A stretch of 64,000 nt of DNA from Candidatus Latescibacterota bacterium (GCA_965221775.1 CBDCSU010000005.1:32001-96000), one strand, 5' to 3'; numbered from the stretch's first letter, positions 3,000 through 43,974 are shown. Notes: generated from the sequence alone by a model not told the origin. Translations and numbers: made by a program.

Positions 3000-3001
3000 C
3001 C

Positions 3002-18071: not shown

Positions 18072-18087
18072 TGCAATCCGGGTGCCA
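18072..18087 (-). promoter_or_regulatory. Sigma54 (-24/-12) promoter of the psp operon
   Basis: TGGCAC-CCGGA-TTGCA, a consensus match. Confidence 0.88.
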
Positions 18088-18198
18088 TCGCCTCCCCCAT
18101 TGGGGAAGACGAGACTCAACTTGCTGTCATACAGTCCATTGCAGGGAAAACCGCATGCTTGTCGGAAGGTGGCGGACCGGCTGGATCCGCCATCTCGA

Positions 18199-22939: not shown

Positions 22940-23413
22940 TCACTGGGCGGCGCCGACCAGGGCCTTGATCCGCGCCCAGGCCGCCCTGTGGACAGCCGTG
23001 GACACCGCCTCGGGAGGGTGGCTCTCCGGGTCGGCGGGATCGGTGACCAGGGCGGCGTCGCCGGGGGGATCGTCCCCGGCCGTCCAGCTCCCTTCGGGAT
23101 CGCCGAGCTCCTCGCCGTTGGTGAAGCCGTCGCCGTCGGAGTCGAGGGCGGCCAGCTCCGGCGTCCAGAAGACCTCGCGGCCGTTGACCGTGACCAGGGC
23201 CTCCACGTCGAGGCCGAACCCGTTGCGCGGGCTGCCGCCGCCGGAGAGGTGGCAGAGGTTGCAGCCGGCGCCCACCGCCTCGGCGTTGGGCAGCATGTTG
23301 CCCCGGAAGCCGCGGGCCTCGGCGGCTTCGGTCCACGGGCCGCCGGACCACAGGCCGGCGGCCGCGAGGACGGCCGCCAGCAGAGCGGGGATTCTCCTGC
23401 TTCCTGGATTCAT
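22940..23413 (-). CDS. Secreted temptin-like protein with a CxxCH motif and C-terminal 'STAV..W..IK' tail
   Basis: Signal peptide; LPN...[18 protein letters not shown]...[24 protein letters not shown]. Confidence 0.72.
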
Positions 23414-24075
23414 GACTCCTCCTCCTGTCGGGCGGCCCACAGAAGGCCGCGGCGCTGGATCTCCCGGGCCTCGGGCACCTCGAAGTCGGCGGCCACGTGC
23501 CCCAGGGATGAGAAGAACACCCTCCCTTCGCCCCAGACCCGCTTCCAGACCACGGGCATCACCGTGCCGTTGACCCAAGGGGCGCTGCGGGTGTCGAAGG
23601 TCGTCGTGGCCAGCACATCGTTGCCGGGATCGACGTGCATGTAGTACTGCTCCGAGTGCATGCGGAAGTCGCCGAGGCCGCGGACGACGGGATCGTCCGG
23701 GGCGGTGATGTCGACGGTGTAGTCCTTGACGCCGTCGGGATGGCCGACGAACTGGCCCCCCGTCATCATCTGGTAGCCGCAGTTGTTGCGGAAGGCGTCG
23801 CACATGCCGCCGTGCCAGCCCCCCAGGCCGACGCCGCCCTCCACCGCCTGCAGCAGCCCCCTCTCCTGATCGCCGTCGATGTCGCCCATCGTCCAGCAGG
23901 GCACCACGAGGCTCAGCGAGCCCATGAGGTCGGCGTCGAGGTAGCTGTCCATGGTGTCGGACAGGATCACCTCCAGGCCGGCCTCCTGCAGCAGCGGCGC
24001 GAAGATGTCGACGCACTCCTTCGGCTGGTGACCGTTCCAGCCTCCGTAGACCATCAGGACCCTGGCCTGGGGCAT
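23410..24075 (-). CDS. ThuA-like (trehalose utilization) domain protein
   Basis: [47 protein letters not shown]. Confidence 0.9.
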
Positions 24076-24134: not shown

Positions 24135-25958
<1,824 letters not shown>

Positions 25959-25963
25959 CGTCC

Positions 25964-27409
25964 TCACCCGGCGGCCGCCACGCCCCGCCTCTCCTCGAGC
26001 TGCCTGCGGACCTCGTAGGCCTTCTCCTCGGTGAGGGTGTGGGTGGCGATCGCCCAGATGGCCAGCGCCGAGCTGACCATGGGCACGATCACGTCGAAGA
26101 GGCGCATGAGGAAGATGGTGCGCGCCGTCTGCGCCCCCTCGAGGGCGACGTCGAAGCCGGTGGCGTTGAGCAGCACGCCGCCGCCGGCCAGGGCCAGGGC
26201 CATGCCCAGCTTCACCACCCACCAGAAGATGGAGCCGAACATGCCCTCGCGGCGCTCGTGGGTCTCCAGCTCGTCGAGGTCGCAGACGTCGGCGATCATC
26301 GACGGCATGACGGTGAACAGGCAGCCGAGGCCGAAGGCGATGAAGGGGGTGGGCAGCAGCAGCAGCATGGGATGGGCCGGGTCGTAGCAGACCCACTTCA
26401 TCCCGTAGCCGAGGATGGAGACGCCGATGCAGACGAAGAAGGTCTGACGCTTGCCGATGCGGGTGCCGAGCCAGGTGACGAAGGTGATGACCACGAAGGT
26501 CGAGACCGCCGCCAGGGTGCCGGACCAGCCCGCGTATTGAGCGCCCAGGGACTGGTCCCCGGAGAACACGTAGTAGATGATGACGTAGGCCTGGAAGGAA
26601 GCGACCAGGATGAAGCCGTTGAAGACCAGGAAGGTGGCGGCGCAGAGCTTGAGGAAGGGCCGGAACTTCAGGGTCGCCAGGAAGCCCTGGAAGAACCGGG
26701 CCATGCTGTGGCGGAATCCGGAAGCCCCCTCCTCCGCCTCGGCGGCGGCGACCTCCTTGAAGCGCTCGCGCAGGAAGATCGCCGGCAGCACGCCGACGGC
26801 GATGGTGAACACGCCGATCGCCACCGACAGGCCGGCGGCGCCGGCCACCAGATCGTCGAAGAGCGGCTCGTACTGCATGACCCACAGGAACCACGGGGTC
26901 ACCACGTAGGCGAGCTGACCGATGAAGTTCTGCACCCCCATGAGGCGGGTGCGCTCGTGGTAGTCGGGGGTCAGCTCGTAGCCGAGGGCGACCCAGGGCG
27001 TGGCGAAGATGGTGTACCCGAGGTAGAACAGCAGCGAGCCGACGAGGAAGTAGACGAAGTAGAAGCCCTCGCTCTGGCCCCGGGGCAGCTGCCACAGCAG
27101 GATGAAGAGCAGCCCGGCGCCGATCGCCCCGGCGAAGATCCAGGGCCGGCGCCGGCCCCAGCGCGACCGGGTGTGGTCGGTGATGTAGCCCATGAGCGGG
27201 TCGGTGAGGGCGTCGGTCAGCCGCGGCAGGGCGCCGAGGAGGCCCACGAGGGCGGGGTTCATGCCCAGGCCGAGGTTGAGGACGATGGTCATGCCGCCGA
27301 TCGCCCCGGCCAGCAGGTTGTTGACGAAGGCGCCGAGGCCGTAGGCCACCTTCTGGGGGAAGGGGATCCGGTCTTCCGGCGCCGTCCGGCGGTGTGGCTC
27401 GGCGCTCAT
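25964..27409 (-). CDS. MFS glycoside-pentoside-hexuronide (GPH) sugar transporter
   Basis: KVAYGLG, DALTDPLMGYITD, WGRRRPW, SMIADVCD, RREGMF. Confidence 0.93.
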   Translation of the reverse strand: MSAEPHRRTAPEDRIPFPQKVAYGLGAFVNNLLAGAIGGMTIVLNLGLGMNPALVGLLGALPRLTDALTDPLMGYITDHTRSRWGRRRPWIFAGAIGAGLLFILLWQLPRGQSEGFYFVYFLVGSLLFYLGYTIFATPWVALGYELTPDYHERTRLMGVQNFIGQLAYVVTPWFLWVMQYEPLFDDLVAGAAGLSVAIGVFTIAVGVLPAIFLRERFKEVAAAEAEEGASGFRHSMARFFQGFLATLKFRPFLKLCAATFLVFNGFILVASFQAYVIIYYVFSGDQSLGAQYAGWSGTLAAVSTFVVITFVTWLGTRIGKRQTFFVCIGVSILGYGMKWVCYDPAHPMLLLLPTPFIAFGLGCLFTVMPSMIADVCDLDELETHERREGMFGSIFWWVVKLGMALALAGGGVLLNATGFDVALEGAQTARTIFLMRLFDVIVPMVSSALAIWAIATHTLTEEKAYEVRRQLEERRGVAAAG

Positions 27410-28230
27410 TCCCCGGCTCGCTGGTAGACGCGCACGTAGTCGACGAGCATCGTGCTCGGGAACACGGTGGCGGCGTCGGGATCGCCGACGAAGCCGCCGC
27501 CCACGGCGACATTGAGGAGGAGGAAGAAGGGGTGGTCGAAGACCCACTCGGCCCCCTCGGGCAGGTCCGCCGGGGTCACCTCGTGGTACTGGAAGTCGTC
27601 GACGTACCAGCGGATCCGGTCCGCCTGCCAGTCTACGGCGAAGAGGCGGAAGCGCCCCGCCAGGCCGCCGCCGACGGCGGTCTCCGTGCCCACGCCCCCC
27701 GCCCCCGAGTAGCCGGGCCCGTGGACGGTGCCCAGCACCACCGCCGGATGCTGGCCGCGGAACTCCATGACGTCGATCTCGCCGCAGGCCGGCCAGCCGG
27801 CCGAGTCGATGTCGTTGCCGAGAAGCCAGAAGGCCGGCCAGATCCCCTGGCCCTCCGGCAGCAGGATGCGCGCCTCGAAGCGGCCGTACGCCGCCTCGAA
27901 CAGCCCCTGGGTCTTGATCCGCGCCGAGGTGTAGCGGTTGCCGCCGAAGCTCTCCCGCCGGGCGGTGATGGCCAGGCGGCCCTCGCCGTCGAGGGAGGCG
28001 TTCTCGGGCCGGCCGGTGTTGTGCTCGAGCTGCTGGTTGCCCCAGCCGTGGCCGCCGACGTCGAAGCGCCAGCGCTCCGGATCGGGAAGGGTGCCCGCCG
28101 GGCCCTCGAACTCGTCGGACCAGACCAGCTCCAGGGCCGCTTCGGCGCCGCCGCCGGCGGACGGGCCGGACTCGCCGGCGCAGGCCGCCAGGACGGCGGC
28201 GGCGGCCAGGGTGAGGTTCCTGCGGACCAT
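27406..28230 (-). CDS. GH16 beta-1,3-glucanase (laminarinase-type) lipoprotein
   Basis: Lipobox LAAC, WSDEF, YTSARI, GIWPAFW, GEIDVME catalytic motif, LLNVAVGG. Confidence 0.95.
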   Translation of the reverse strand: MVRRNLTLAAAAVLAACAGESGPSAGGGAEAALELVWSDEFEGPAGTLPDPERWRFDVGGHGWGNQQLEHNTGRPENASLDGEGRLAITARRESFGGNRYTSARIKTQGLFEAAYGRFEARILLPEGQGIWPAFWLLGNDIDSAGWPACGEIDVMEFRGQHPAVVLGTVHGPGYSGAGGVGTETAVGGGLAGRFRLFAVDWQADRIRWYVDDFQYHEVTPADLPEGAEWVFDHPFFLLLNVAVGGGFVGDPDAATVFPSTMLVDYVRVYQRAGE

Positions 28231-28259: not shown

Positions 28260-29426
28260 CTACTCGGAGATGTAGACGCCGTCGACGAGGACGAAGTCGC
28301 CGGCCGCCGCCTTCGGACCTCCCAGCGACAGGGGCGAGGTCACCGCCGAAAGGTCCAGCCCCCGGGCGGCGAAGTCGGCCAGCGGGATCCGCAGGGAGTG
28401 CCACTCCCCGTCGGCGGCGTACCCGTAGTCGCCGGCGGGAACGATGTGGCGGTCGTCCGAGGCGCCGTTCATGCCGACTTCGATGACGGCGAAGCTCTCG
28501 GAGCGGAAGCTCACGTGCAGGCTCTTCCACCCGGACAGGTCGCGCGGCTCGCTCCAGTGCACGCCCATCCCCCACCAGTCGCCGCCGGCGTGGACCAGGC
28601 GGTGGGCCGCCTGTCCCTCCAGGGCTTCGTCGGTCTCCTGCATCGAGACCGTGTTGTCGTAGAGGTAGAGGTTCGCCGTGGTGTTGTCGATCTCCACCAC
28701 CTCCGAAGAGCTGCCCTCGTAGAACACGCCGATGCTCAGGCGGCGGCCGGCCTCCGCCGCGGCCGTGGTCCCCGGCGTCAGGTCGAAGTAGAGGTTGTCG
28801 ATGAGGACGAAGTCGCCGGCCTCCGCCTTGGCACCTCCCAGCGACAAGGGCGAGGTCACCGCCGCCAGGTCCAGCCCCCGGGCGGCGAAGTCGGCCAGCG
28901 GGATCTGCAGGGTGTGCCACTCGCCGTCGGCGGCGTACCCGTAGTCGCTGGCGCGCACCACGTGGCGGTCGTCCGACGCGCCGTTGAGGCCGATCTCTAC
29001 CTCGGGGAGACTCTCGGAGCGGAAGCTCACGTGCAGGCTCACCCACCCGGACAGGTCCCGGGGCTCGCTCCAGTGGAGGCCCATGCCCCACCAGTCGCCG
29101 CCGGCGTGGACCAGCCGGTGCGCCGCCCGGCCCTCCAGGGGCTCCTCCACCTCCTCCACCGAGACCGTGTTGTCGTAGAGGTACATGTGGGAGGTGGTGT
29201 TGTCGATCTCCACCAGCTCCGAGGATCCTCCCTCGTAGAAGGCGCCCACGGCCAGGCGCTGCTCGCCGGCCTCGAAGGGATCCGGCCCCGGCAGTCCGGG
29301 CTCCTCGCCGTCCACGGGGGTCACCGCCAGGTCGAAGCTCTCCTGGGACTCGTAGTCGGAGTCGTCCAGCCCCGACCGGCAGGCCGCCAGCAGCAGCAGC
29401 AGGAGCGCCAGGGCGCGGGCCGTCAT
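28260..29426 (-). CDS. Lipoprotein with two tandem carbohydrate-binding-like (galactose-binding fold) domains
   Basis: Lipobox LAAC; duplicated WWGMG.HW...DLSGW..LHVSFRS...DGEWH.L.IPLADF...D..Y. Confidence 0.75.
   Translation of the reverse strand: MTARALALLLLLLAACRSGLDDSDYESQESFDLAVTPVDGEEPGLPGPDPFEAGEQRLAVGAFYEGGSSELVEIDNTTSHMYLYDNTVSVEEVEEPLEGRAAHRLVHAGGDWWGMGLHWSEPRDLSGWVSLHVSFRSESLPEVEIGLNGASDDRHVVRASDYGYAADGEWHTLQIPLADFAARGLDLAAVTSPLSLGGAKAEAGDFVLIDNLYFDLTPGTTAAAEAGRRLSIGVFYEGSSSEVVEIDNTTANLYLYDNTVSMQETDEALEGQAAHRLVHAGGDWWGMGVHWSEPRDLSGWKSLHVSFRSESFAVIEVGMNGASDDRHIVPAGDYGYAADGEWHSLRIPLADFAARGLDLSAVTSPLSLGGPKAAAGDFVLVDGVYISE
28270..29261 (-). repeat. Intragenic tandem duplication, period 516 nt (172 aa)
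   Basis: Long identical blocks 516 nt apart, e.g. AGGACGAAGTCGCCGGC at ~28288 and ~28804. Confidence 0.9.
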
Positions 29427-29992
29427 CGCCTCACCGCCTTGTCGTTGCCGTGCGGGTCCTGGACCAGCAGCCAGCCGGCGGCGGGGGGCCCCCCGAGGTC
29501 GAGGATGCCGCGGTACGCCGCGGTCACCAGCTCGAAGGAGAAGGTGCCGGTGGCGTCCCAGCTGGCCGCGTCGGGGAAGTTGTCGAGGACCGACTGGTAG
29601 GCGGCCAGGGCCATCTCGCGCACCGCCGGCAGGTCCTGCTGCCGGGCCAGGCCCCGCGTCCAGATGCGGCCGAGGTTGACGGCGACGTAGTACTGGTGCT
29701 CGCCGGTGGGCTCGTTGGCCAGCCAGGTGGCCCAGCTGTAGTAGGCGGCCACGGCGTTTCCCGTGCTCTCGATGGCCCACTTGGTCTCCGGCCCGCTGGA
29801 GGCGCGGGCGAAGGGGTTGCCGGGGTCGTCGAGGACGGCCTTGCTCGGGTGGATGCCGGCGCTCTCGTCGAAGAGCCGCAGCGGCTCCTCGCTCATGGGG
29901 CTGCCGTAGCGGAAGGGGCCCGGCTCGGAGCAGCCGGCAGCCAGCAGCACCGGAAGAAGGGCCAGCAGCGGGATGGCGCTCGTGGGTCTCAT
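29423..29992 (-). CDS. Lipoprotein of unknown function in the glucan locus
   Basis: Lipobox AAGC; GIHPSKAVLDDPGNPF, WATWLA.EPTGEHQYY. Confidence 0.75.
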   Translation of the reverse strand: MRPTSAIPLLALLPVLLAAGCSEPGPFRYGSPMSEEPLRLFDESAGIHPSKAVLDDPGNPFARASSGPETKWAIESTGNAVAAYYSWATWLANEPTGEHQYYVAVNLGRIWTRGLARQQDLPAVREMALAAYQSVLDNFPDAASWDATGTFSFELVTAAYRGILDLGGPPAAGWLLVQDPHGNDKAVRR

Positions 29993-29999
29993 GCTCGCC

Positions 30000-32900
30000 T
30001 CACAGGCCGACGTGGACGTAGAGGCCGACCTCGACCTCGGCGCCGGTGGCTCCGGGATCGCCGGGATCGGCCACGTACTCGGGCGAGTTCTCGTCGAGGG
30101 TGCGCACCTGGGCCCGCAGGCCGAAGCGCGTCGAGGCGCCCTCCAGGCCGGCCGGCTTCAGCCCGTACGAGACGTCGCCGTACCACTGCAGCGGGTAGGT
30201 CAGGTTGAAGTCCCGGTGGAAGTCGTACGGCCCCCAGTCGTCGAGGCGCAGACGGGTGCGCGCGTCGACGGTGTGCCACCACAGGCGCAGGTCGCCGCCG
30301 TAGCGGCGGATGCGGCGCGGGTCGTCCCCCCGGGGCTCGCCTTCGCCCGCCAGCAGGGTGGCCGCCAGGCGCAGGCCGCGGCCGGGGTTGTGGACCGTGT
30401 GCAGCTTCGCCTCCCACTCGTCGCCGGCCGGGGGCGTCTGCCCGAAGGGCACGACGGCGCCGTTGGCCAGGGTGAAGGTGTGGGCGTCGCGGCGTTCCGG
30501 GTGGTGGCGGTACCACAGGTCGAGGGCGGCGACGAAGGGGGCGTCCTCGCGGATGTCGCGGTCCCAGGTGTGGAACCAGGTCCCCGGCGTCGGATCGTAG
30601 ACCAGCAGCAACTCGCCGGCGGCGGTCTCGCGGTTGTCGAGGACGACGAAGGGGTCGTCGAGGATGTTGCGCGGCCGGACGGCGGGATAGTAGAGGCCGG
30701 TGCGGCTGCTGTAGTGATCGTCGATGCGCGGGTTGGCGGGCAGGACCGGCTTCTGGTAGAGGACCTGCGGCGAGATCTCCAGCAGCCCCAGCCGGTACGA
30801 CGCCCCCGACGAGAGCGCCCAGTGGTTGCCGCGTCCGCTCTCCTTCAGCGACCAGCCGGTGAGCAGGGTGGCGCCCGAGTAGCCGCCGTCGGCGACGAGG
30901 CCTTGCAGGCTGCCCTGGCCGTACCAGCGCACGGCGCCCTCCCAGGTCAGGCGCACGCGGCCGCCGAAGGTGTCGCCCCACTTGACCTCGTCGTCGATCA
31001 CCTCCCAGCCGGAGTCGAGGTAGCCGCGGCCCGAGGTCTCCCGGACCCAGGTGAAGGCGTCGCCGACCTTCGGCGAGCCGGAGAAGATGCCGCCCGCCTC
31101 GAGGGTCAGGGGCCTGGCGTCCCAGGAGAAGTAGAGGGTGGTGCGCCGGTTGAGCTGCTCGGGCACGGCGAAACTGGTCTGCGCCCCCGAGGCCTCCGCC
31201 AGGTCCTCGTGGTGGATCACCGACCAGCTCCAGGCCCCGACCGCGCGCTGGTACTTGGCCAGCACCGCGGCGTTGGCCCCCCACCACAGCTCCGGCCCGA
31301 CGGCGACCTTCCAGCCCTGCCAGGGGCCCTTGCCGGTGATCTCGAAGCCGTTGGGCGCCTGGCCGTTGTAGGTGTCGAGGTTGGGCCCGTAGTTGGCCTC
31401 CGGGTAGAGGCCGAAGAAGTCGCCCTCGTAGCCCCAGTGGAAGTGGCCGGTGCGGAAGAAGCCGTCGAGGGTGAAGCGCGGCCGCTCGATGGTGAACTCG
31501 ACGGCATGGACGGCGAAGCGGTCGACCACTTGCCGGGGCTCGCGCGAGGGCGCCTGTCCCGGCGCCGGCACGACCCGCTCGAGGGCGCGGTTCTCGTAGA
31601 AGATGTTGTCGAGGCGGTTCTGGCCCACGGCGCCGACGCCGTGCAGGGAGAGGCGGCCCCGCAGGTCGCCGCTGTCGACCTCCAGGTCGGTCCAGAACGA
31701 CTCGGTGTGGCCGAAGCGCTCCTCCTCGCCGCGCTCGGTGCGCTCGTCGCCGCTGCTGATGCTCGACTCGTAGCGCATGCGCACGTCGCCGAGGCGCACG
31801 GCGCGCAACTGCTTCACCTCGTCGAGGGCGCGGCCGGTGGCGTAGCGGTGCGAGTAGTCGGAGAGCCGGATCTGGCCGAAGCTCCGGCGGATGACCTCCG
31901 CCGTCGTCGCCTCGGCGTAGGGGTCGAGGCGGAAGGCCCGCTGCAGGACGTAGTAGGAGGTGCGCGGCGTCACCGGGATGAAGCCGCGGTCGTCGGAGGG
32001 GCCCTTGGCCGCGATCCCCCACCACTCCTCGTTCATGTTGTTGCGGCCCTCGACGAAGTCGTGCACGTAGGCGCCGGTGGCCCAGCTGGCGTTGGTGTCG
32101 TGGACGTCGAGGTTCTCCTCCTGGCGGAACTTCCACCAGCCGTCCGACCACTGGAAGATGAAGCCGCCCAGGGCGGTGCCGGCGCCGCCCTTGCCGTAGG
32201 ACTGCTCGTAGATCTCGCGCCACTGGCCGAGGAGGTAGTCGGCCTGGGCGACATCGTCCTCGCGGTCCCTCTTGGCGTCGTAGGCGTCGGCGCCGAACTC
32301 GGTGTAGACGAAGGGCACCCCCATCTCGTCGCGGACGCGCCGGAAGAGGTCGCCGCTGCTGACCCCGCGGTAGACGTTGGCGCCCATGATGTCGACCTCG
32401 GGGCAGGTGCGGGCGATGACGTCGAGATAGTTGATGTCGCCGTTGGCCAGGGCCACCGGGTGGCGGTCGTCGAGGCCGCTGACCAGGGCCGCGCCCTCGC
32501 CCATCAGCGTGTACAGGTACTCGGCGCGCGGATCGTCGGCCTCCTCGGGCAGGTCCTCGATCTCGAAGCTGGTCCACGACAGGCCGTAGTTGTTCTCGTT
32601 GCCGAGGAGGTACATCAGCACGCCGCGCGTGTCCCGGTAGGCCTCGACGGTCCGCTCCAGGTCGGCGAGGATCGCCCGGCGCGTGGTCTCGTCGCTGTAG
32701 TCGGTCTCGGGCACGAAGCGGCCGTTCACCTCGAAGCCGTAGCGCCCCATCAGGTGATTGACGGCGGTCATGATGCCGTACTCGTCGTAGATGTGCTCCA
32801 CCCAGCGCGGCGGAATCTCGGAGAACAGGCGGATGGCGTTGACGCCCATCTCCCGGAGCATCGACATCTCGGCGTCGAGGGCCTCGACGATGAACTCGTC

Positions 32901-33116
32901 GGGCTGGTCCCACAGGGAGTAGCGGTAGTTCTCGCCCACGGGGATGTAGCCCCAGTTCATGCCGAAGACCATGAAGTCCTCGCCGTCGACCTGGAGCTTC
33001 CAGCCGCGCTCGTCCTCGACGACGACCACCTGGTTCGCCTGCGCCTCCGCCCGCGGGGCGAGCCCAACGGTCAGCGCCAGGAGCAGGACGGGGAACAGGA
33101 TCCGCCGAGTCTTCAT
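30000..33116 (-). CDS. Clan GH-A (GH2-like TIM barrel) glycoside hydrolase fused to a predicted outer-membrane beta-barrel
   Basis: Signal peptide; GMNW, MGVNAIR, LLGNENNYGL (acid/base), TEFGAD (nucleophile); C-terminal ~550 aa of alternating aromatic beta-strands ending EVGLYVHVGL. Confidence 0.8.
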   Translation of the reverse strand: MKTRRILFPVLLLALTVGLAPRAEAQANQVVVVEDERGWKLQVDGEDFMVFGMNWGYIPVGENYRYSLWDQPDEFIVEALDAEMSMLREMGVNAIRLFSEIPPRWVEHIYDEYGIMTAVNHLMGRYGFEVNGRFVPETDYSDETTRRAILADLERTVEAYRDTRGVLMYLLGNENNYGLSWTSFEIEDLPEEADDPRAEYLYTLMGEGAALVSGLDDRHPVALANGDINYLDVIARTCPEVDIMGANVYRGVSSGDLFRRVRDEMGVPFVYTEFGADAYDAKRDREDDVAQADYLLGQWREIYEQSYGKGGAGTALGGFIFQWSDGWWKFRQEENLDVHDTNASWATGAYVHDFVEGRNNMNEEWWGIAAKGPSDDRGFIPVTPRTSYYVLQRAFRLDPYAEATTAEVIRRSFGQIRLSDYSHRYATGRALDEVKQLRAVRLGDVRMRYESSISSGDERTERGEEERFGHTESFWTDLEVDSGDLRGRLSLHGVGAVGQNRLDNIFYENRALERVVPAPGQAPSREPRQVVDRFAVHAVEFTIERPRFTLDGFFRTGHFHWGYEGDFFGLYPEANYGPNLDTYNGQAPNGFEITGKGPWQGWKVAVGPELWWGANAAVLAKYQRAVGAWSWSVIHHEDLAEASGAQTSFAVPEQLNRRTTLYFSWDARPLTLEAGGIFSGSPKVGDAFTWVRETSGRGYLDSGWEVIDDEVKWGDTFGGRVRLTWEGAVRWYGQGSLQGLVADGGYSGATLLTGWSLKESGRGNHWALSSGASYRLGLLEISPQVLYQKPVLPANPRIDDHYSSRTGLYYPAVRPRNILDDPFVVLDNRETAAGELLLVYDPTPGTWFHTWDRDIREDAPFVAALDLWYRHHPERRDAHTFTLANGAVVPFGQTPPAGDEWEAKLHTVHNPGRGLRLAATLLAGEGEPRGDDPRRIRRYGGDLRLWWHTVDARTRLRLDDWGPYDFHRDFNLTYPLQWYGDVSYGLKPAGLEGASTRFGLRAQVRTLDENSPEYVADPGDPGATGAEVEVGLYVHVGL

Positions 33117-33141
33117 GGGATCGCCTCTGGCCGGCCGCGGT

Positions 33142-34110
33142 CTACCGGGCCAGGACCACGCGCTGGGTCCGGGTGAAGTCGCCGGCGGTCATCCGGTAGA
33201 TGTAGACGCCGCTGCCGGCGGGGGAGCCGCCGTCGTCGACGGCGTCCCAGGTCACGGCGTACTCGCCGGCGGCGTGGAACCCGCTCACCAAGCTCCGCAC
33301 CCGCTGGCCGAGGCTGTTGTAGACGGCCAGCTCCACGTCGCCGGAGGAGGGCAGGGAGAAGTGGATCGTCGTGACGGGGTTGAAAGGGTTGGGATAGGCG
33401 AGGCCGAGGCTCCAGGCCGCCGGCGCCCGCGCCAGCCGCGTCACCGCCGTGGACGCCTGGGGGGCGCCGCTGGTGAAGAGGATGTCGTCGAAGTCGACGA
33501 GGACATCCGTCGCCGCTCCCCCCTCGACACCGGAGATGACGATGACGACTTCGTCCACGCGGCCGTCGAAGGTGCCGTCGCCGCCGGTCTGCAGGTCGGT
33601 CAAGGAGGCCAGGGGCGCGCTGACCTGGCGCCAAGTGTCGTCGGCGTCGGAGCTGTCGAAGGAGAGGATGTGCTGGAAGGAGTCGTCCTCGCCCTCCTCG
33701 TAGCCCTCGCCGTCGGTGTCCTCGCGGACGGTGAGCTCCACCGAGAAGCGGTCGACGGTGGTGCCGGTCTGGACGAGGACCCACAGGCTCAGCCACGGGT
33801 CCTCCGGCAGGGTCAGCTGCGCGTCCTCGGGGAGATTGCGGAAGAACCCGCCGTAGAACACGCTCTCGCTGCCGGCGCCGCCCCAGCCCGTGTCCAGGTA
33901 CCAGGAGCCTTGCGCCGGACGGTCGCTGGCGGCGCCGCCGCCGCCGCCGGCCTCGTTGCCCCCGAAGAAGATCCAGTCCGAGGCATCGCCGTCCTCGAAG
34001 TCGTCGAAGGTCACCTGCCCGTGGGCGGCGGCCGGTCCCAGCAGGAGCAGGGCCAGGGTCAGCATCGCCGCGCCCAGGGAACCGGTGGTGGCTGGCATGG
34101 GAACTCTCAT
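33142..34110 (-). CDS. Secreted CBM11-like domain protein with FlgD-Ig/T9SS-like C-terminal domain
   Basis: Signal peptide; FDDFEDG...W..V..P...L...DDI; YPNPFNP..TI.F...VYNSLGQ.V...WD......SGVYIYRM. Confidence 0.8.
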   Translation of the reverse strand: MRVPMPATTGSLGAAMLTLALLLLGPAAAHGQVTFDDFEDGDASDWIFFGGNEAGGGGGAASDRPAQGSWYLDTGWGGAGSESVFYGGFFRNLPEDAQLTLPEDPWLSLWVLVQTGTTVDRFSVELTVREDTDGEGYEEGEDDSFQHILSFDSSDADDTWRQVSAPLASLTDLQTGGDGTFDGRVDEVVIVISGVEGGAATDVLVDFDDILFTSGAPQASTAVTRLARAPAAWSLGLAYPNPFNPVTTIHFSLPSSGDVELAVYNSLGQRVRSLVSGFHAAGEYAVTWDAVDDGGSPAGSGVYIYRMTAGDFTRTQRVVLAR

Positions 34111-34188: not shown

Positions 34189-34204
34189 TGCAATTGGCGG
34201 GCCA
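34189..34204 (-). promoter_or_regulatory. Sigma54 promoter of the beta-glucan operon
   Basis: TGGCCC-GCCAA-TTGCA (GG-N10-GC) about 80 bp upstream of ATG at 34110. Confidence 0.75.
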
Positions 34205-34377
34205 GGCTCTCCGGGAATCGGAGAGAACCGGCCTAACTCGTTGGCCCACAGTGAAATCAAAATGCAGTGGACGCCGCAAGAGGGGTTCCACCCGCTCCTC
34301 GTCCGGGGCGAAATGTCCACTCCGGAAGCCCTGGACTGTAACCTATCCTGTTGATCTGGATCGAGTTACAGCGTATT

Positions 34378-34411
34378 GAGCGATATTTCGCTCGCGGGCG
34401 AAATATCGCCC
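34378..34411. promoter_or_regulatory. Candidate enhancer: two inverted GCGAWATWTCGC sites
   Basis: GAGCGATATTTCGCTC and GGGCGAAATATCGCCC about 180 bp upstream of the sigma54 promoter; no U-tract, so unlikely to be an intrinsic terminator. Confidence 0.6.
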
Positions 34412-34418: not shown

Positions 34419-37400
34419 TCAGCGGGGCCTCTCCAGGCCGAGCTTCTTCATGCGGCTGCGCAGGGTGGAGGGCGGAAGCCCGAGGGCCGCGGCCGCGCCT
34501 CCCTCGCCGCGGACGAGCCAGTTCCTCGACTCCAGGACGCGGCGGATGTAGCGGCGCTCGAACTCCTCCAGGGGCAGGACCTCGAGCTCGCCGGGCGGCG
34601 GCGGCGCCGCCTTCAGCCCCAGGTCGGCGGCCGTGATCCGGGGGCCGCGGCAGGCGATGACGGCGCGCTGCAAGGTGTGCTCCAGCTCGCGCACGTTCCC
34701 CGGCCACGGCTGCGCCCGCAGGACCGCCACGACCTCGGGCGTCAGGGGGCCGATGCGCTTGTCCAGGTGCGAGGCCATGCGCTCCTTGAACAGCTCCGCC
34801 AGGGCCGGCACGTCCTCCTGGCGGTCGCGCAGCGGCGGCAGGCGGACGGGCAGCACCTGCAGGCGGTAGTAGAGGTCCTCGCGGAAGTCGCCGTCGCGCA
34901 CCATCTGCTCCAGGTCGCGGTTGGTGGCGGCCACCACCCGGGCGTCGGCCCTCAGGGTGCGGCTGCCCCCCAGGCGCTCGAAGGTGCCGTCCTCCAGGAG
35001 CCGCAGCAGCTTCACCTGCGCCTCCAGCGGCATGTCGCCGATCTCGTCGAGGAACAGGGTGCCCCCCGCCGCCAGCTCGACCTTGCCGAGCTTGCGCGCC
35101 AGGGCGGTGGTGAACGACCCCTTCTCGTGACCGAAGAGCTCGCTGTCCACCAGGGTGGCGGGCAGGGCGCCGCAGTTGACGTGGATCAGGGGGCCGCCGC
35201 GGCGCCGGCCGAGGGCGTGCAGGATCCGGGCCGCAAGTCCCTTGCCCACCCCCGTCTCGCCGAGGATGAGCACGGTGAGATCGGCCTCCGCCGCCTCCAT
35301 GAGCCGCGTCTGCACCCGCTGCAGGGCGGCGCTGCGGCCGGTGAACTCGACCCCCGGGGCCTGGCCGCCGAGGGCCTCGGTCAGGGCGGCGATGCGCGGG
35401 TCGGGCTCGACCGAGACCGGGACCTCGGCGATCTCCGAGTAGTTCAGGTCGCGGTCGACGGCGCGCACCTGGAAGGTGTACTCCCCCTTCGGCAGGTCGC
35501 GGTAGTGGGCCCGCATGTTCCGGGTCGCCGGCCCCCAGTCGCGCTCGTGGCCCTGGAGGCGGACCACGTAGAGCATGTCCCGGGGATGGGTGGAGAAGCT
35601 CACGCCCTTGTACTCGAAGATCACCGGCTGGCCGGCGGACAGGACCACCGCCGACGGCGACTCGAAGACCTGGTCGGCCACGACCTGGTCGAGGCGCACC
35701 CGCGGCGGGTTGCGGCCCGGCCGGTAGCGGACCAGGGTGCCGAGGGCGGTGCCGAACCAGAACGTGCCCTCCCGGTCCTCCAGGATCTGCAGGACCGGCC
35801 CCGCCGGGGGCAGCTTGATCGTCTGGAAGAGCCGGCCGTCGTGGTGGGCGACGCCGCCGTCCGTGCCCAGCCAGAGATGCCCGCGGCGGTCCTCGAAGAG
35901 GCAGCGGACGCGGTTGCTCGGCAGGCCGTCGTCGGTGGTGTAGTTGTGGAACCGGCTGCCGTCGAAGCGGCTCAGGCCGTTCTGGGTGGCGATCCACAGG
36001 TGGCCGGAGCGGTCCTGCAGGAGATCGACCACGCGGTTGTCGGGCAGGCCGTCGTCGGTGGTGTACAGGGCGGCGCCGCGCTCGGGGTGCCAGCGGCCGA
36101 TCCCCTTGCCCCGGCCGAAGGGGTTGTGGGTCCCCAAGGCGTACCACAGCTCGCCGTTGCGGGCCGCCACCAGGGCGCCGATGTGGTTGAAGGGGTCCTC
36201 CTTGTCCTCCTCGCGGAAGACGGTGACGAAGCCCTGCCCCTGGCGGCGCACGATCTGCAGGGGGCTGGCGAAGAGCTCCTCCCTGCGGGCGGTGGTCCCG
36301 TTCACCCACTGACCCACCAGCAGCCGGCCGTCCCGGTCCTGGGCCACGGCGCTGACGCCGGCCTCGACGAAGCCGGCCTCGGCGCCGACCCGCTCGAAGC
36401 GGGCGCCGTCGTAGCGGAACAGCCCGTTGCCGCCGCCGAACCACAGGCCGCCGCCGCCGTCCTCGTAGATGGCGAAGCAGCTGTTGAGGTCGAGGCCCTC
36501 GCCGGCGCCGACGAACTCGTAGCCGCTGCCGTCGAAGCGGGCGACGCTGCGCGCCGTCAGGCTGAGGAAGGGGGTGGAGAACCCGATCCAGATGCGGCCC
36601 CCCCGGTCCTGCACCATCCGCGAGATCTCCGCCTCCCCCTCGGGGTAGTCCTCGGGGCGCTCGAAGAGACCGACGCCGAAGGCGTCGTAGCGGGCGACGC
36701 CGCCGCCCCAGGTGGCGAACCAGTGCTGGCGCTCGGGGTCCTGGAAGACGGCGTTGACCACCGGATAGGGCAGGCCGTCGGCGGTGGTGATGCGATCGAA
36801 GCCGTCTCCCGCCTGGTAGAGCGCCCCTCCGGAGGTGCACAGCCACAGGCGGCCGTCGCGGTCGCACTGGATCTTGCGGAGATGGCCGGGCAGGTCCACC
36901 GCCACCGGGTCGAAGCAGCGGCCGTCGAACCGCCAGATCCGCTGCCGCTCGCCGGCGCGGCCGATCCACAGGCCGCCCCCCGGGTCGCGGCCGACGACAT
37001 AGCAGCTGGCGTCGGCCGGCAGGCCCTCGGCCTCTCCGTAGCGGTGGAAGTCGCGGCCGTCGAAGCGGACCAGGTGGTCGAAGGCGAACCACAGGTCGCC
37101 GCGGGTGTCCTGGGTGATCCCCCAGCACTGGTTGGTCCAGCGCGGCGACGGCGGCTCTCCGTAGCGCTCGGCGTAGGCCGGCGCCAGGTCGCGGAACTCG
37201 CCGCCCTGGAACCAGCCCAGGGTCCCGGTGCCGGCGCACCAGAGGCGGGACTGGTCGTCCTCGAAGAGGGACTGGACGGGGCGGCCGGCGATGCCCTCGC
37301 CGACGGCGGGATGGAACCTGCAGCCGTCGTGCCAGCAGACGCCGCTGAGGGTTGCGAACCACAGCCGGTCGCCGCCGTCGCGGAGGATGGAGAACACGCG

Positions 37401-37598: not shown

Positions 37599-37672
37599 GA
37601 GGGGGGCTCCCTCCGCCGTTGGGTCGGCGGTGCGCGGGGGTTATCGTTGGCCGCGTCAAGGTAGCCCGACCC

Positions 37673-39310
37673 GTGCCCCCCCGCCATATCGCCCGCCATG
37701 GATGGGCCCGCCGGCTGCAGGCCGCCAGCCGCCGCCTCGGACGCGCCCTCGACCCGCCCGGCACCGAGTACCGCCTGGCGCGGTGGCTGTTCCTGCGCCT
37801 CCTCGGGCTGGTCTACGCCACCGCCTTCCTGGTCTCGGCGCGCCAGGCGGGACCGCTGATCGGCGACGGGGGGCTGCTGCCGGCGCGCCTCTACCTCGAA
37901 GGCGCCGCGGCCGCGGCCGCCCTGCCGTGGCTGGATGTCCCGACGCTGATGTGGATCAGCACCGCCGACGGCTTCCTCGCCGGCCTCGCCTGGCTCGGCT
38001 TCGCCGGGGCGCTGCTGCTGGTGGCCGGGTACGCCTCCGCTCCCCACCTGCTGGTCCTTTGGGTCCTCTACTCCTCCTTCGTCAACGCCGGCCAGTTGTT
38101 CTACGGCTACGGCTGGGAGATCCTCACCCTCGAGACCGGGTTCCTGGCCGTCTTCCTGTGCCCCTTCGGCCGCGGCGGCCGGCGCCACGCCGTCGCCCCG
38201 GACCGCGCCGTGGTGTGGCTGCTGCGCTGGCTGCTGTTCCGCGTCATGTTCGGCGCCGGGCTCATCAAGCTGCGCGGCGATCCGTGCTGGCTCGACCTGA
38301 CCTGCCTGTTCCATCACTACGAGACCCAGCCGATCCCCAACCCCCTGAGCCCGTACCTGCACCTGATGCCGGGCCTGGCGCACCGCGCCGGCGTGCTCTT
38401 CAGCCACCTCGTGGAGGTCGGCGCCCCCCTGCTGCTCTTCGGCCCGGTGCGCCTGCGCCGGCTCGCGGGGCTCCTCATCCTCGCCTTCCAGGTGCTGCTC
38501 ATCGCCAGCGGCAACCTCTCCTGGCTCAACTACCTGACCATCGCCCTGTGCCTGCCGTGCTTCGACGACGCCTGGCTCCGGCGCATCGCGCCCCGGCCCT
38601 TGAAGGCCCTCCTCGCCAGGGAGGAGGCAGCCGCCCGCGCGCCGGGCCGGGGACGCCGCCTCGCCGTGGGCGCGCTGACCGTGGTGGTGGTCCTGCTCAG
38701 CGCCGCGCCCGCGGCCAACATGCTCTCCTCGCGCCAGGTGATGAACACCTCCTACGACCGCCTGCACCTGGTCAACACCTACGGCGCCTTCGGCCACGTG
38801 GGGAAGGTGCGGCGCGAGGTCGTCCTGCTGGGCACCCTCGACGAGCCGGGACCGGGCGGGGCCCGGTGGCGGGAGTACTCCTTCCACTGCAAGCCCGGGG
38901 ATCCCTCCCGCCCGCCGTGCGTGGTCTCGCCCTACCACTACCGCCTCGACTGGCAGATCTGGTTCGCCGCCATGGCCGACTACCGGACCCAGCCGTGGCT
39001 CGTCCACCTCGTGTACAAGCTGCTCCACGCCGACCCCGGGGCCCTCTCCCTGCTCGCCGGGGATCCCTTCGACGGGAGGCCGCCGCGCCGCATCCGCGCC
39101 GACCTCTACGAGTACGAGTTCGCCCCGGCCGGTGAAGAAGGCTGGTGGCGGCGGCGCCGTCTGGGCGAGTACCTTCCCGCCCTGTCCGCCGGCGATCCGG
39201 CCCTGCGCCGCGTCGTCGAGGGATTCGGCTGGCCGCTGCTGCCGGGGCCGCCCCGCACTGCCTCCGCCAGCCTGCCGCGGGGGCAAGGATGCCCTTGCGG
39301 CGCCGGCTGA
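37673..39310 (+). CDS. Lipase maturation factor (LMF1) family membrane protein
   Basis: LFLRLLGLVY, YGWEILTLETGFL, FGAGLIKLRGD, HYETQPIPNP, YHYRLDWQIWF; start uncertain. Confidence 0.92.
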   Translation: MPPRHIARHGWARRLQAASRRLGRALDPPGTEYRLARWLFLRLLGLVYATAFLVSARQAGPLIGDGGLLPARLYLEGAAAAAALPWLDVPTLMWISTADGFLAGLAWLGFAGALLLVAGYASAPHLLVLWVLYSSFVNAGQLFYGYGWEILTLETGFLAVFLCPFGRGGRRHAVAPDRAVVWLLRWLLFRVMFGAGLIKLRGDPCWLDLTCLFHHYETQPIPNPLSPYLHLMPGLAHRAGVLFSHLVEVGAPLLLFGPVRLRRLAGLLILAFQVLLIASGNLSWLNYLTIALCLPCFDDAWLRRIAPRPLKALLAREEAAARAPGRGRRLAVGALTVVVVLLSAAPAANMLSSRQVMNTSYDRLHLVNTYGAFGHVGKVRREVVLLGTLDEPGPGGARWREYSFHCKPGDPSRPPCVVSPYHYRLDWQIWFAAMADYRTQPWLVHLVYKLLHADPGALSLLAGDPFDGRPPRRIRADLYEYEFAPAGEEGWWRRRRLGEYLPALSAGDPALRRVVEGFGWPLLPGPPRTASASLPRGQGCPCGAG

Positions 39311-41041: not shown

Positions 41042-42544
41042 TCATTCCGCCGCCGGCTCCCCGAACCAGAAGGAGAACAGCTCCGCCTGCCACAGGTGGA
41101 AGCGGACCTGAAGGCTGCGGCCCCGCAGCGCCGACAGATCGGAGCCGCCCTCCCACGACAGGACCTCGTCGATGCGGTCCGCCATCATCGGCCGGCAATC
41201 CCCGCGCGCGAACCCGTCGATGGGCTCGGCAGTGCCGGGGTCGAGGAGCTCCGCCTGCACGCGCCCGCGCCAGGCGTCGGCGTTGACGTGGAGCGCCGCC
41301 CCGTCGACCTCCATGGGCCTCGAGGTGACCGAGCCCCACTCGACGCCGCCCTTGAGGCCGACGAAGCCGTCGATCCGCATCCGCGCCAGGCAGACGGCCG
41401 AGGCGTCGAGGGTCCCGCGGTGGGCCTCGTCGTGGAAGCTGAGGCTGCGGTGGCGCAGGCCCGTGTAGTAGAACCACAGCTCGTCGTTGCGCCGCACGGG
41501 GCCGTTGGTCACCACCACCTGCCCCGTGTCATACGCCGACCCGTCTCCCACCGGCGACAGCTCCATGAAGGGGGCGCGGCCGGCTACCCGCTGCCATTGC
41601 CTGAGGTCGCGGCTGCAGGCCAGCTCCACCGTCTTGCGGCTGTCCACGTTCTCGTATCCCGGCGGGTGCTTGCCGATCCAGTGGTGCATGACCGGCAGCG
41701 CCAGGTAGAGCCCCTCGTAGGGGAAGAGGGGGAAGTTGTACACGTCGGTGCGCCACTCCTCGGGGCGGTTGAAGACCGGCGCCAGGTACGCGGGATCGTC
41801 GAGGAACCGGCGCACGCGCGCGAAGCCGTTCTCCTGGTCCTGCTGGTCGGCGTGGAAGATCAGCTCCGGCTCGGTCCAGGTGTCGAAGTCGCGGCTCGTG
41901 GACAGGGCGAAGGAGCGCCCGTACGGACCGTGCCGCTTGGGGGTGGCGATGAACAGGCCGCGGGCGGCGTCGTGGGTGAGGTGGGCCTCGTCGAAGCTGG
42001 GCACGGCGGCGCCCTCGAGGTCGCGCCAGTGGATGCCGTCGGCGGAGACGGAGGCCTGCAGGGAGCGGGCGTCGTTGCGCATGCCCTTGAACCGCCGCCC
42101 GGGGTCCGGGTCGGCGGCGTCGTGGATCGGCCCCTGGAGCATCCCCTTCGCCGTGGGCAGGATGTTGTTGGCGGTGCCCAGGGGGCGGCCGGCCCAGTCG
42201 CGGCCGCCGTACTCGAACAACCCCAGGTCCGGCTTCTCCCAGTTGACGCCGTCCTCGGAGAAGGCGCAGCAGGCGAAGCTCTCCCCTCCCTGCGGCGCCC
42301 AGGGCGAGCGCGGTTCCGGCGAGTCGGCATCGGGGGCCTCGGCGGCGGCCTGGTAGATCAGGTGGAAGCGCCGCGCCTTCGGGTCCCACGCCGGCGTGGT
42401 GCGGATCTGGATGGCGCAGTTGTCCCAGCGCCGGTCCGGCCGCAGCACGGCGTTGCCGTGGAACTTGCGCGGCGGGTGCAGGACGCGGGCCAGGTTGTCG
42501 ATGCGGTCGACGTCGCCGTCGTCGATGAAGAGTCTTCGGGTCAT
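41042..42544 (-). CDS. Hypothetical beta-propeller glycoside hydrolase-like protein (GH32/43/130 clan-like)
   Basis: RLFIDD, SEDGVNWEKP, SADGIHW, SRDFDTW, SRDLRQW Asp-box repeats, R.DGF. Confidence 0.7.
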   Translation of the reverse strand: MTRRLFIDDGDVDRIDNLARVLHPPRKFHGNAVLRPDRRWDNCAIQIRTTPAWDPKARRFHLIYQAAAEAPDADSPEPRSPWAPQGGESFACCAFSEDGVNWEKPDLGLFEYGGRDWAGRPLGTANNILPTAKGMLQGPIHDAADPDPGRRFKGMRNDARSLQASVSADGIHWRDLEGAAVPSFDEAHLTHDAARGLFIATPKRHGPYGRSFALSTSRDFDTWTEPELIFHADQQDQENGFARVRRFLDDPAYLAPVFNRPEEWRTDVYNFPLFPYEGLYLALPVMHHWIGKHPPGYENVDSRKTVELACSRDLRQWQRVAGRAPFMELSPVGDGSAYDTGQVVVTNGPVRRNDELWFYYTGLRHRSLSFHDEAHRGTLDASAVCLARMRIDGFVGLKGGVEWGSVTSRPMEVDGAALHVNADAWRGRVQAELLDPGTAEPIDGFARGDCRPMMADRIDEVLSWEGGSDLSALRGRSLQVRFHLWQAELFSFWFGEPAAE

Positions 42545-43161
42545 GGGTCCCGTGCCTCCGTTACGCCGATCATGCTGTCGCGGGTAACCAGCGCCGCCAG
42601 CGCCTCCTCGGACAGGCCCTCGGCGCCGGGCGGGCGTCGCGGCAGCACGAGGTAGCGCAGGTCGGCGGTGCTGTCGATGACGCGCACCTGCACGCTCTCG
42701 CCGAGGTCGAGTCCGAACTCGCGCATCACGGCGCGCGGCTCGGCGACGGCCCGCCGTCTGTAGGGAGCGCTCTTGTACCAGTCGGGGGGCGGCCCCAGCA
42801 GGGCGGTGGGGTAGCAGGAGCACAGGGTGCAGACCACGAGGTGATGGACGCTCTCCGTGTTCTCCACCACGGCCAGCTCGGCGTCGCGGGTGAGGCTCAG
42901 GCCCAGCTCGCCCACGGCGGACCGGGCGTCGGTGAGCAGGCGCGACTTGAACTCCGGATCGACCCAGGCCCGGGCCACGACCCGGGATCCGTCCGAGAGG
43001 GAGCGGGACTGGATGCGGCGGGCCTGCTCCTCCACCTCTCCAGCCGCGATCACCTCCTTGTCGACGAGCAACTCGTGGATGGCCAGGGCGCGCCGGGCCC
43101 TGGGGCCCAGATCCTCGTCGGGCCGGACTCCCTTGTGCGGCTCGTGATGGCCGGGGCTCAT
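42541..43161 (-). CDS. Cobalt nitrile hydratase alpha / thiocyanate hydrolase gamma subunit
   Basis: VVARAWVDPEFK, HLVVCTLCSCYP (Co-type CTLCSC), PPDWYKS, LVTRDSMIG. Confidence 0.93.
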   Translation of the reverse strand: MSPGHHEPHKGVRPDEDLGPRARRALAIHELLVDKEVIAAGEVEEQARRIQSRSLSDGSRVVARAWVDPEFKSRLLTDARSAVGELGLSLTRDAELAVVENTESVHHLVVCTLCSCYPTALLGPPPDWYKSAPYRRRAVAEPRAVMREFGLDLGESVQVRVIDSTADLRYLVLPRRPPGAEGLSEEALAALVTRDSMIGVTEARDP

Positions 43162-43810: not shown

Positions 43811-43974
43811 GGAGTGCGAATAAATGGGCGCCCCCAGTCGGGTCAACCGGCTTCGGTCAAGGACGGACTCGTCCCGGGCGCGGCGCGGCGAGCGGTTTGA
43901 GCAGGAACGGCAGGTCCCCTTTCTTCGGGCGCGCCTCCAAGACGGCTCGAGATCCGCAAACGAAGGAGCATGCC

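Follow-up and report, generated by a model that had tools for sequence, protein, structure and literature searches.

The gene at positions 30000–33116 (minus strand) of a 64,000-nucleotide stretch of Candidatus Latescibacterota DNA (GCA_965221775.1, CBDCSU010000005.1:32001–96000; the whole stretch is called the window below) encodes an exported protein in which a glycosidase of clan GH-A is joined through a linker to a β-rich C-terminal domain that is likely an outer-membrane β-barrel. We propose that this protein may act as a combined enzyme and TonB-independent channel in the import of laminarin-type glucan, a reading to which we give a probability of roughly 0.45; the channel role, the coupling of cleavage to passage, the substrate, and the membrane face at which the enzyme would sit are all inferred. 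The parts of the gene referred to below are as follows.

30000..33116, minus strand: target gene, stop codon included, encoding the GH-A glycosidase, the linker, and a β-rich C-terminal domain of ~600 amino acids (open reading frame, third-position GC of 0.98, homologues)
33042..33116, minus strand: signal peptide, residues 1–25, Sec/signal peptidase I type with cleavage between AEA and Q, without a lipobox Cys (judged by eye from the translation)
31917..33035, minus strand: clan GH-A glycosidase domain, approximately residues 28–400, a probable endo-β-1,3-glucanase (stand-alone homologues cover 25–400)
32595..32600, minus strand: N173–E174, the Asn and the general acid/base Glu of GNEN (aligned to GNE of 6pal_A)
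32298..32300, minus strand: E273, the catalytic nucleophile in YTEFG (aligned to TEWG of 6pal_A)
31797..31916, minus strand: linker, residues 401–440, probably helical (between the ends of homologues with only the glycosidase and the first strand of stand-alone C-terminal domains)
30003..31796, minus strand: C-terminal domain, residues 441–1038, 24 amphipathic β-segments in a next-neighbour antiparallel meander, a probable outer-membrane β-barrel (co-variation)
30003..30038, minus strand: last strand, residues 1027–1038, EVEVGLYVHVGL, with the conserved end E-x-E-...-Y-x-x-hydrophobic-x-hydrophobic

The window has a G+C content of ~72%, which produces long open reading frames (ORFs) in every frame. 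The target ORF runs from an ATG at 33116–33114 to a stop at 30000–30002 on the minus strand and encodes 1038 amino acids; its GC content is 0.68, 0.46, and 0.98 at the first, second, and third codon positions, respectively, a pattern that, at this base composition, indicates a real coding sequence. A longer ORF on the plus strand (29973–33176) failed the same codon-position filter and was rejected as a low-complexity shadow frame. The N-terminus of the target, MKTRRILFPVLLLALTVGLAPRAEA followed by Q, has the appearance of a typical Sec signal when the translation is judged by eye.

A first-pass annotation of the window had reported intact clan GH-A motifs, GNEN and TEFG, in the N-terminal part of this protein. 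Both are present, as LLGNENNYG (N173, E174) and YTEFGADA (E273), and the three residues were invariant across 44 homologues and reached a conservation of at least 90% in a set of 80 with identities down to 27%. The family of the domain was compared using profile E-values and Pfam. In Pfam, the only match of the N-terminal module was Glyco_hydro_2_C (PF02836), at 10.9 bits and below the cut-off of 21, with no further GH2 domain in the target; some homologues carry a precomputed PF02836 assignment, and NCBIfam returned nothing useful for this module. The profile of the 44 homologues matched 6pal_A, the chain of the laminarinase BuGH158, with an E-value of 1e-6 (profile 131–323 against chain residues 73–250, including both catalytic motifs), a second GH158 entry with an E-value of 1.9e-6, and GH2 β-galactosidases with E-values from 2.3e-6, the last covering the first half only. 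BuGH158 (6PAL) has the catalytic residues N136, E137, and E220 and prefers laminarin as its substrate (PMC7157763). Both catalytic Glu residues of the target align with the BuGH158 pair, and this alignment, together with the conservation of N173, E174, and E273, indicates on sequence grounds that the module is an intact, retaining clan GH-A glycosidase, as had been annotated. In clan GH-A, the Asn–Glu pair follows strand 4 and the nucleophile Glu strand 7 of a (β/α)8 TIM barrel, a fold that is predicted for the module from its similarity to TIM-barrel families. The GH158 entries scored no better than GH2; on these scores, the module is assignable to neither family and, as judged from the profiles, is only distantly related to both. 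It is most likely an endo-β-1,3-glucanase, a substrate suggested by the context of the locus.

The C-terminal domain was analysed with full-alphabet mean-field direct-coupling analysis of 422 distinct sequences aligned to the family hidden Markov model (624 columns; effective number of sequences, Meff, 343 at 80% identity). The co-variation map was a string of antiparallel hairpins, from which 24 segments were delimited (residue numbers of the target).

A 441–455, B 467–480, C 484–497, E 531–544, F 547–557, G 586–596
H 601–611, I 614–626, J 628–641, K 653–667, L 670–697, M 700–726
O 728–741, P 760–775, Q 778–790, R 825–848, S 853–881, T 887–906
U 915–928, V 934–947, W 950–960, X 974–986, Y 993–1004, Z 1027–1038

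A probable helix occupies residues 499–512. For all 22 interior segments, the two sequence neighbours were the top two antiparallel partners. The 23 adjacent segment pairs had a median score of 15.8 and a minimum of 9.3, whereas the 252 non-adjacent pairs had a median of 6.0, a 95th percentile of 8.9, and a maximum of 12.8. The pairing of neighbours was continuous, and the lack of a break every four strands disfavours a propeller, just as the lack of pairing between non-neighbours disfavours sandwiches. The longest hairpin arms were ~27 residues (e.g., 670–697 with 700–726). Short connections of at most eight amino acids (E–F, G–H, I–J, K–L, M–O, P–Q, R–S, T–U, V–W, and X–Y) alternated with long ones (F–G, 30 amino acids; O–P, 20; Q–R, 35; W–X, 14; Y–Z, 22), which is the pattern of periplasmic turns and external loops in outer-membrane proteins. 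An earlier run with a reduced alphabet was noisy, with 207 ladders over threshold, and an apparent long-range pair, 523–1019, was rejected as lying in indel-rich loops.

The chemistry of the segments is also consistent with a membrane location. All 24 segments were amphipathic, and in 15 of them the hydrophobic face was the more variable one. In a set of 326 sequences, the hydrophobic columns of the glycosidase domain were better conserved than the polar columns (1.20 versus 1.73 bits; Spearman −0.18, p = 7e-4), whereas residues 531–1038 of the same sequences showed no such difference (2.09 versus 2.14 bits; Spearman −0.04, p = 0.43). Such a loss of the relation of hydrophobicity to conservation would be expected if the hydrophobic residues faced lipid. 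Within the C-terminal domain, conservation was highest at positions in long connections with many aromatic and charged residues (HWGYEGDFFGLY, GPELWWGAN, DDWGPYDFHRDFNLTYP, and RPRN..DDPF), and these connections may form a glycan-binding constriction. The first-pass annotation had described a C-terminal run of amphipathic strands; the run stands, as 24 amphipathic segments ending in EVEVGLYVHVGL, its length is corrected from ~550 to ~600 amino acids (441–1038), after a linker of ~40 amino acids, and the strand, which that annotation had left out, is minus. Taken together, we consider it likely that residues 441–1038 form an outer-membrane β-barrel, probably one of roughly 24 strands, with both the fold and the location read indirectly from these patterns.

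The C-terminal domain is, by its occurrence in sequences, an autonomous module that is also found without the enzyme. Five stand-alone homologues of 580–615 amino acids (P0203, P0212, P0254, P0266, and P0269) align from the first strand through to the end; in P0269, a signal peptide lies a few residues ahead of the first strand, and the five proteins end in VLSF, YFF, HKF, ISY, and YKF, with an aromatic residue last in every case. Conversely, P0182 (424 amino acids) is a relative with only the glycosidase and matches residues 25–399 of the query. In a quick maximum-likelihood tree of 58 C-terminal domains, the stand-alone proteins fell outside the clade of fused proteins (Shimodaira–Hasegawa-like approximate likelihood ratio test, 97–99), the fused proteins grouped largely by phylum (13 label changes versus 27.8 in shuffles), and those of Bacteroidota formed one clade of 12 with a support of 100. 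The position of the stand-alone proteins and the clustering by phylum fit a single ancient event in which a glycosidase became joined to a pre-existing secreted β-protein.

Searches with the C-terminal domain of the target found no match in Pfam or NCBIfam. In particular, Pfam gave no autotransporter β-domain in the target, and Pfam and NCBIfam gave no Por_Secre_tail domain, the C-terminal domain of the type IX secretion system (T9SS), which the upstream gene does encode. Plug, the TonB_dep_Rec barrel, and SusD had no match in the target (E ≤ 1) or in the 58 C-terminal domains (E ≤ 10), a search that did not extend to the TonB box. DUF6882 was matched by 12 of the 58 domains at E ≤ 10, with a best E-value of 0.0021, and was taken as noise. 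The language-model neighbours of two homologues were unnamed clusters, DUF6029 (0.93), and an SlpA β-barrel (0.91, with only 143 shared features), and these serve as leads only; DUF6029 is described as Wzi-barrel-like in one report (PMC9603273). In one source, the fragment P0369 bears the label 'TonB-dependent receptor-like be...'.

The family is large. A word-seeded search found 2348 proteins at E ≤ 0.001 among the 8000 candidates scored, and the 120 matches listed were 969–1157 amino acids long and covered 91–100% of the query. When 1.84 billion cluster representatives were searched exhaustively, 1868 matched, 272 of them with E ≤ 1e-30, and full-length relatives extended down to 29% identity. 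When one genome per species was considered, at least 585 of 591 candidate stretches encoded a relative, the best being a Candidatus Latescibacterota chromosome (locus L001) at 92% identity. These numbers of homologues show that the target is a real gene and no chance ORF. The named records, which are a minority of the matches, belong to Latescibacterota, Myxococcota, Gemmatimonadota, Bacteroidota, Ignavibacteriota, Fibrobacterota, Rhodothermota, Krumholzibacteriota, Eisenbacteria, Delongbacteria, and a few proteobacterial bins, and Spirochaetota were added by a search seeded with a 34%-identical member; every named taxon has two membranes. One record, titled Comamonas sp. KCTC 72670 (L002), shares its locus with Myxococcus sp. 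Y35 (L003), falls inside Myxococcaceae in the tree, and is probably mislabelled or contaminated.

The target lies in a run of co-directional genes with intergenic gaps of at most 59 nucleotides and two start/stop overlaps.

33142..34110, minus strand: secreted protein that ends in a T9SS type A sorting domain, upstream operon gene (TIGR04183, 42.4 bits, cut-off 23)
29423..29992, minus strand: lip1, 189-amino-acid lipoprotein (LAAGC) of an unnamed family, 7 nucleotides downstream of the target
28260..29426, minus strand: lip2, lipoprotein (LLAAC) with two Exop_C-like (galactose-binding-like) tandem repeats, its start overlapping the lip1 stop
27406..28230, minus strand: GH16 glucanase with a lipoprotein signal
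25964..27409, minus strand: MFS_2/GPH-family sugar:cation symporter of the inner membrane
24135..25958, minus strand: GH3 β-glucosidase
23410..24075, minus strand: ThuA-family protein, last of the co-directional run
34419..37397, minus strand: σ54-dependent activator with Reg_prop/Y_Y_Y sensor repeats, AAA+, and HTH_8
34190..34204, minus strand: candidate σ54-type −24/−12 element, TGGCCCGCCAATTGC, ~80 nucleotides upstream of the first operon gene
34380..34409, no strand: palindrome with 15-nucleotide arms, 93% complementary, between the activator stop and the promoter candidate

The gene content of the operon and of related loci supports the prediction that the operon is a β-1,3-glucan (laminarin-type) utilisation locus. 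The first-pass annotation had pointed to similar ~1050-amino-acid 'GH2 TIM barrel' proteins in laminarin loci, in agreement with the names given in the sources and with the contexts seen here. Within the operon, lip1 had no match in Pfam, NCBIfam, or PDB, a PDB profile search included, and belongs to a family of lipoproteins of ~190 amino acids with invariant NPF, GE.Q.Y, and FP motifs; it is a candidate partner of the barrel. A PDB profile search with lip2 also found no match, and lip2 is probably a surface glucan-binding protein. A frameshift in the downstream gene was considered and rejected in favour of two overlapping lipoprotein genes, an arrangement also found in L001, and a similarity between the T9SS-sorted protein and lip2 was rejected at an E-value of 0.62.

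The σ54-type element TGGCCC-N5-TTGC recurs at the equivalent place in L001 (8916–8930), and a second match with one mismatch lies at 34276–34290 of the window, where the pattern as a whole is not enriched (45 matches versus 49.8 expected). A scan for σ70 promoters found none, and that for terminators found three, versus 2.1 expected. The 30-nucleotide palindrome is a possible binding site for the activator or, alternatively, a terminator. In its translation, the activator shows no obvious signal peptide or membrane helix and may therefore sense sugars in the cytoplasm; its true start is uncertain, because the L001 copy is 74 amino acids longer at the N-terminus. The Reg_prop/Y_Y_Y repeats are the sensor type of Bacteroides hybrid two-component systems.

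Related loci share this context. Among 66 flank proteins from 12 diverse loci, GH16 and MFS_2 were each found in six loci, and GH3, GH30, GH17-like, and GH1 proteins, T9SS-tail proteins, and Reg_prop/Y_Y_Y regulators recurred; a protein of the Big_2/Exop_C type with 470–505 amino acids was usually next after the target homologue. In jackhmmer searches of 80 loci, a lip1 homologue lay directly downstream in 18 (Latescibacterota and Myxococcota), with a lipobox Cys in all 14 homologues for which the start could be set, and the lip2-type domain occurred in 57, frequently encoded immediately behind the barrel gene; in Bacteroidota loci, T9SS-tail proteins carry it as well. A recurrent protein of 1150 amino acids without a Pfam match (e.g., L075, 15586–19044) was identified as a GH149 β-1,3-oligosaccharide phosphorylase (6hq6, E = 0), which was present in 28 of the 80 loci and absent from the window. 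In four loci, DUF5916 proteins were encoded a few kilobases upstream of the target homologue (L039, 1709–3925; L044, 7354–9702; L068, 6420–8798; L069, 6223–8817); those of L039 and L068 also carry CBM9_1, and these proteins may be a second example of a sugar-handling domain fused to a large domain of unassigned fold. In L052, a 1106-amino-acid ORF (1385–4705, minus strand) contained both MFS_2 and GH3, which is either a fusion or an artefact of simple ORF picking.

These loci are poor in other outer-membrane transporters. Another 52 large ORFs in the flanks of 32 loci included one TonB-dependent receptor (L060, Oar-like, on the opposite strand) and no SusC/SusD-like protein; a jackhmmer search seeded with the L060 receptor found it in one of the 80 loci, L060 itself, and found none in the window. 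Oligosaccharides must reach the periplasm and the cytoplasm, and in β-1,3-glucan loci without a TonB-dependent transporter, the target is the only large outer-membrane candidate.

In the mechanism that we propose, the operon would be expressed under σ54 control, giving the T9SS-sorted protein, the lipoproteins, GH16, the symporter, GH3, and ThuA together with the target. The target would be exported by Sec and inserted into the outer membrane through its barrel. Surface proteins would capture and cut laminarin-type glucan, the barrel would offer its chains and oligosaccharides a TonB-independent route through the outer membrane, and the tethered endo-glucanase would cut chains at one mouth of the channel. 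GH3 would then trim the products and the symporter would import them, final steps that could be carried out in other lineages by a binding-protein ATP-binding cassette (ABC) importer with GH1, or by GH149. In an even-stranded barrel, an N-terminal domain starts on the periplasmic side. With 24 strands and a periplasmic C-terminus, the start of strand A would lie at the periplasmic face, so the default topology is a periplasmic glycosidase domain, and cutting at the periplasmic mouth would make entry irreversible. An enzyme on the outer face would require a hypothetical, autotransporter-like threading of the ~40-amino-acid linker through the lumen.

Several results weigh against this mechanism or against the barrel on which it depends. 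Barrel closure was not seen, since the A–Z ladder scored 5.8 and ranked 136th of the 252 non-adjacent pairs, possibly owing to the weak conservation and poor alignment of the first strands. Segment Z coupled to X (12.8) as strongly as to Y (11.6), and a search for a partner of the last strand gave weak pairs only (541–1034, z 5.3; 447–1028, z 3.6). The segments had been delimited on the same map on which the 23 adjacent pairs were later scored, which favours the pairing of neighbours. The final residue of the target is Leu and not the aromatic residue of the textbook β-signal; likewise, the last residue in the 155 stored sequences of at least 950 amino acids, which include the shadow ORF P0002, was Leu in 98, Met in 17, Phe in 12, Ile in 6, Tyr in 4, and Trp in 2, and one or more extra residues followed the last strand in 16 of 55 locus copies, mostly of Bacteroidota and Ignavibacteriota. 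The 58 C-terminal domains matched no outer-membrane family in Pfam at E ≤ 10, PDB searches with C-terminal profiles built from 13 and from 58 sequences found no chain, and a relationship to DUF5916 was rejected when hhalign against one CBM9+DUF5916 protein gave a probability of 0.4%. Co-variation across the whole protein, examined to place the glycosidase domain, gave noise, with 267 of the top 949 pairs scattered between domains after a gauge fix and an earlier run dominated by indel-rich loops. Furthermore, the locus has other candidate surface glucanases, so that coupling of the enzyme module to transport is not a necessity. The missing closure, the lack of an outer-membrane Pfam match, and the predominance of L or M as the last residue would suit a protein, periplasmic or secreted, in which residues 441–1038 are a soluble β-rich region that binds glucan, whether a sandwich array, a propeller, or a long sheet. 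We regard such a fold as quite improbable: at the same threshold, the 58 domains matched no immunoglobulin (Ig), CBM, or propeller family either; the pairing ran unbroken over the 23 neighbour pairs without domain or blade breaks, with hairpin arms of up to ~27 residues; the hydrophobic positions were not the conserved ones, contrary to the glycosidase domain of the same sequences; the stand-alone homologues end in F or Y; and the named records come only from two-membrane bacteria. The first-pass preference for an outer-membrane barrel over a sandwich array draws indirect support from the 24-strand meander, the hydrophobicity pattern, the ends of the stand-alone proteins, and the taxa, and closure is the part of it that co-variation left unseen.

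The evidence for a barrel fits equally well with a protein that is only anchored by it, with the barrel holding the glucanase at the envelope, either displayed in the manner of an autotransporter with the linker in the lumen or tethered in the periplasm, and with the oligosaccharides passing through other porins. The order of enzyme, helical linker, and C-terminal barrel is that of type Va autotransporters, but ~600 amino acids and ~24 strands go far beyond what an anchor needs (autotransporter barrels have 12 strands). The homologue P0159 carries a CBM_4_9 module ahead of the glycosidase domain, which hints at contact with the polymer and is usual for enzymes that meet polymer outside the cell, and BuGH158 is a predicted cell-surface enzyme (PMC7157763). 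On the other hand, the conserved aromatic and charged long connections suggest that the interior, or a cap, is functional, members of the barrel family occur without the enzyme, and related loci almost never carry another outer-membrane transporter, so that a pure anchor appears unlikely. Transport in the opposite direction was also considered, with the barrel as a polysaccharide export porin and the tethered glycosidase trimming or releasing a self-made β-glucan, as do hydrolases next to the porins in synthase-dependent exopolysaccharide systems. Periplasmic N-terminal domains are known on export porins (PgaA and BcsC), and DUF6029, which came closest among the named language-model neighbours, has been connected with barrels for polysaccharide export (PMC9603273). 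However, the operon in the window contains no glycosyltransferase or synthase gene, the scanned flanks of related loci contained a single Glycos_transf_1 ORF (L034, 77–2305), ~6 kb away and on the opposite strand, and the partners are catabolic (GH16, GH3, GH1, GH30, the GH149 phosphorylase, and MFS or ABC importers), which makes export very improbable.

A broader version of the proposed enzyme-channel mechanism, in which the target family is the outer-membrane core of a widespread TonB-independent glycan import system, works with lip1 and lip2, drives one-way entry of laminarin by cleavage at the mouth, and replaces SusC/SusD from Bacteroidota to Myxococcota and Spirochaetota, is put forward tentatively, and we consider it rather doubtful. 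In the sea and in the fungal necromass of soil, laminarin ranks among the largest flows of carbon, and its uptake by two-membrane bacteria is currently modelled on TonB-dependent transporters of the SusC/SusD type. The present family, which has members in at least 585 genomes of different species and includes thousands of protein clusters, occurs in β-1,3-glucan loci without such transporters. If the protein is a channel, predictions of glycan use that count SusC/SusD pairs would overlook these loci, the enzyme module would represent an unassigned family of clan GH-A, and the covalent pair of enzyme and channel would be a simple system for membrane passage coupled to hydrolysis without an energy source; it would possibly be an undescribed route of sugar import into bacteria. 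No published description of the family or of the architecture was found in open-access text; the accessible portions of a review from 2026 on glycoside transporters in bacteria (PMC13543919) and of the paper on GH149 gene clusters (PMC5827456) contain no mention of it.

Elsewhere in the window, an exact σ54 consensus, TGGCACCCGGATTGC, lies at 18073–18087 (minus strand), at the start of a PspA/IM30 gene (ORF 17297–18100). This fits σ54 control of a PspA/IM30 gene of the phage-shock type, the annotated start of which is probably too far upstream. The window also encodes a homologue of the lipase maturation factor LMF1 (37619–39310, plus strand), the α and β genes of a nitrile hydratase (42541–43987, minus strand), and a WD40-repeat protein (47320–48075, minus strand), and no tRNA genes or Rfam matches were found in it.

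Among known systems, the target resembles BuGH158 of the Bacteroides uniformis β-1,3-glucan locus (PDB 6PAL) in its GH-A core, in the aligned NE and E residues, in a locus with GH16 and GH3, and in its likely substrate, laminarin (PMC7157763). The similarity is at the profile level only (E = 1e-6, profile 131–323), no better than that to GH2, and the alignment to 6pal_A stops at chain residue 250 of 407. BuGH158, at 407 amino acids, has an Ig-like domain at its C-terminus and a surface location of the lipoprotein type (PMC7157763), whereas the target has a barrel-like domain of ~600 amino acids instead, and its locus, unlike that of BuGH158, has no SusC/SusD pair. As in SusC/SusD loci, co-regulated surface binders, endo-glycanases, a periplasmic exo-glycosidase, and an inner-membrane importer occur together, and a large outer-membrane barrel gene is followed by a lipoprotein gene; unlike in SusC/SusD, the enzyme of the target is covalently joined to the barrel, and the family extends far outside Bacteroidota. 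Type V autotransporter enzymes such as the esterase EstA and the patatin-like PlpD likewise carry enzyme, linker, and outer-membrane barrel in this order on one chain, but the target differs from type V autotransporters in its ~24 strands, versus 12, or 16 together with POTRA, in the lack of a β-domain match, in its stand-alone barrels, and in its catabolic context. GluM (Corallococcus; EGB) is reportedly a homologue of the TonB-receptor-like Oar and is not known to have a GH-A domain. Two reviews describe GluM as an outer-membrane β-barrel β-1,6-glucanase (PMC10800785, PMC13604645); it shows that barrel-borne glucanases occur in a phylum, that of the myxobacteria, in which the target family is also found. 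Another parallel to the putative channel lies in TonB-independent barrels in which conserved, aromatic-rich inward loops bind glycans, namely the sugar porins LamB, ScrY, ChiP, and CymA and Wzi/DUF6029; the target has no Pfam match to any of these, and none of them is known to carry a glycosidase domain.

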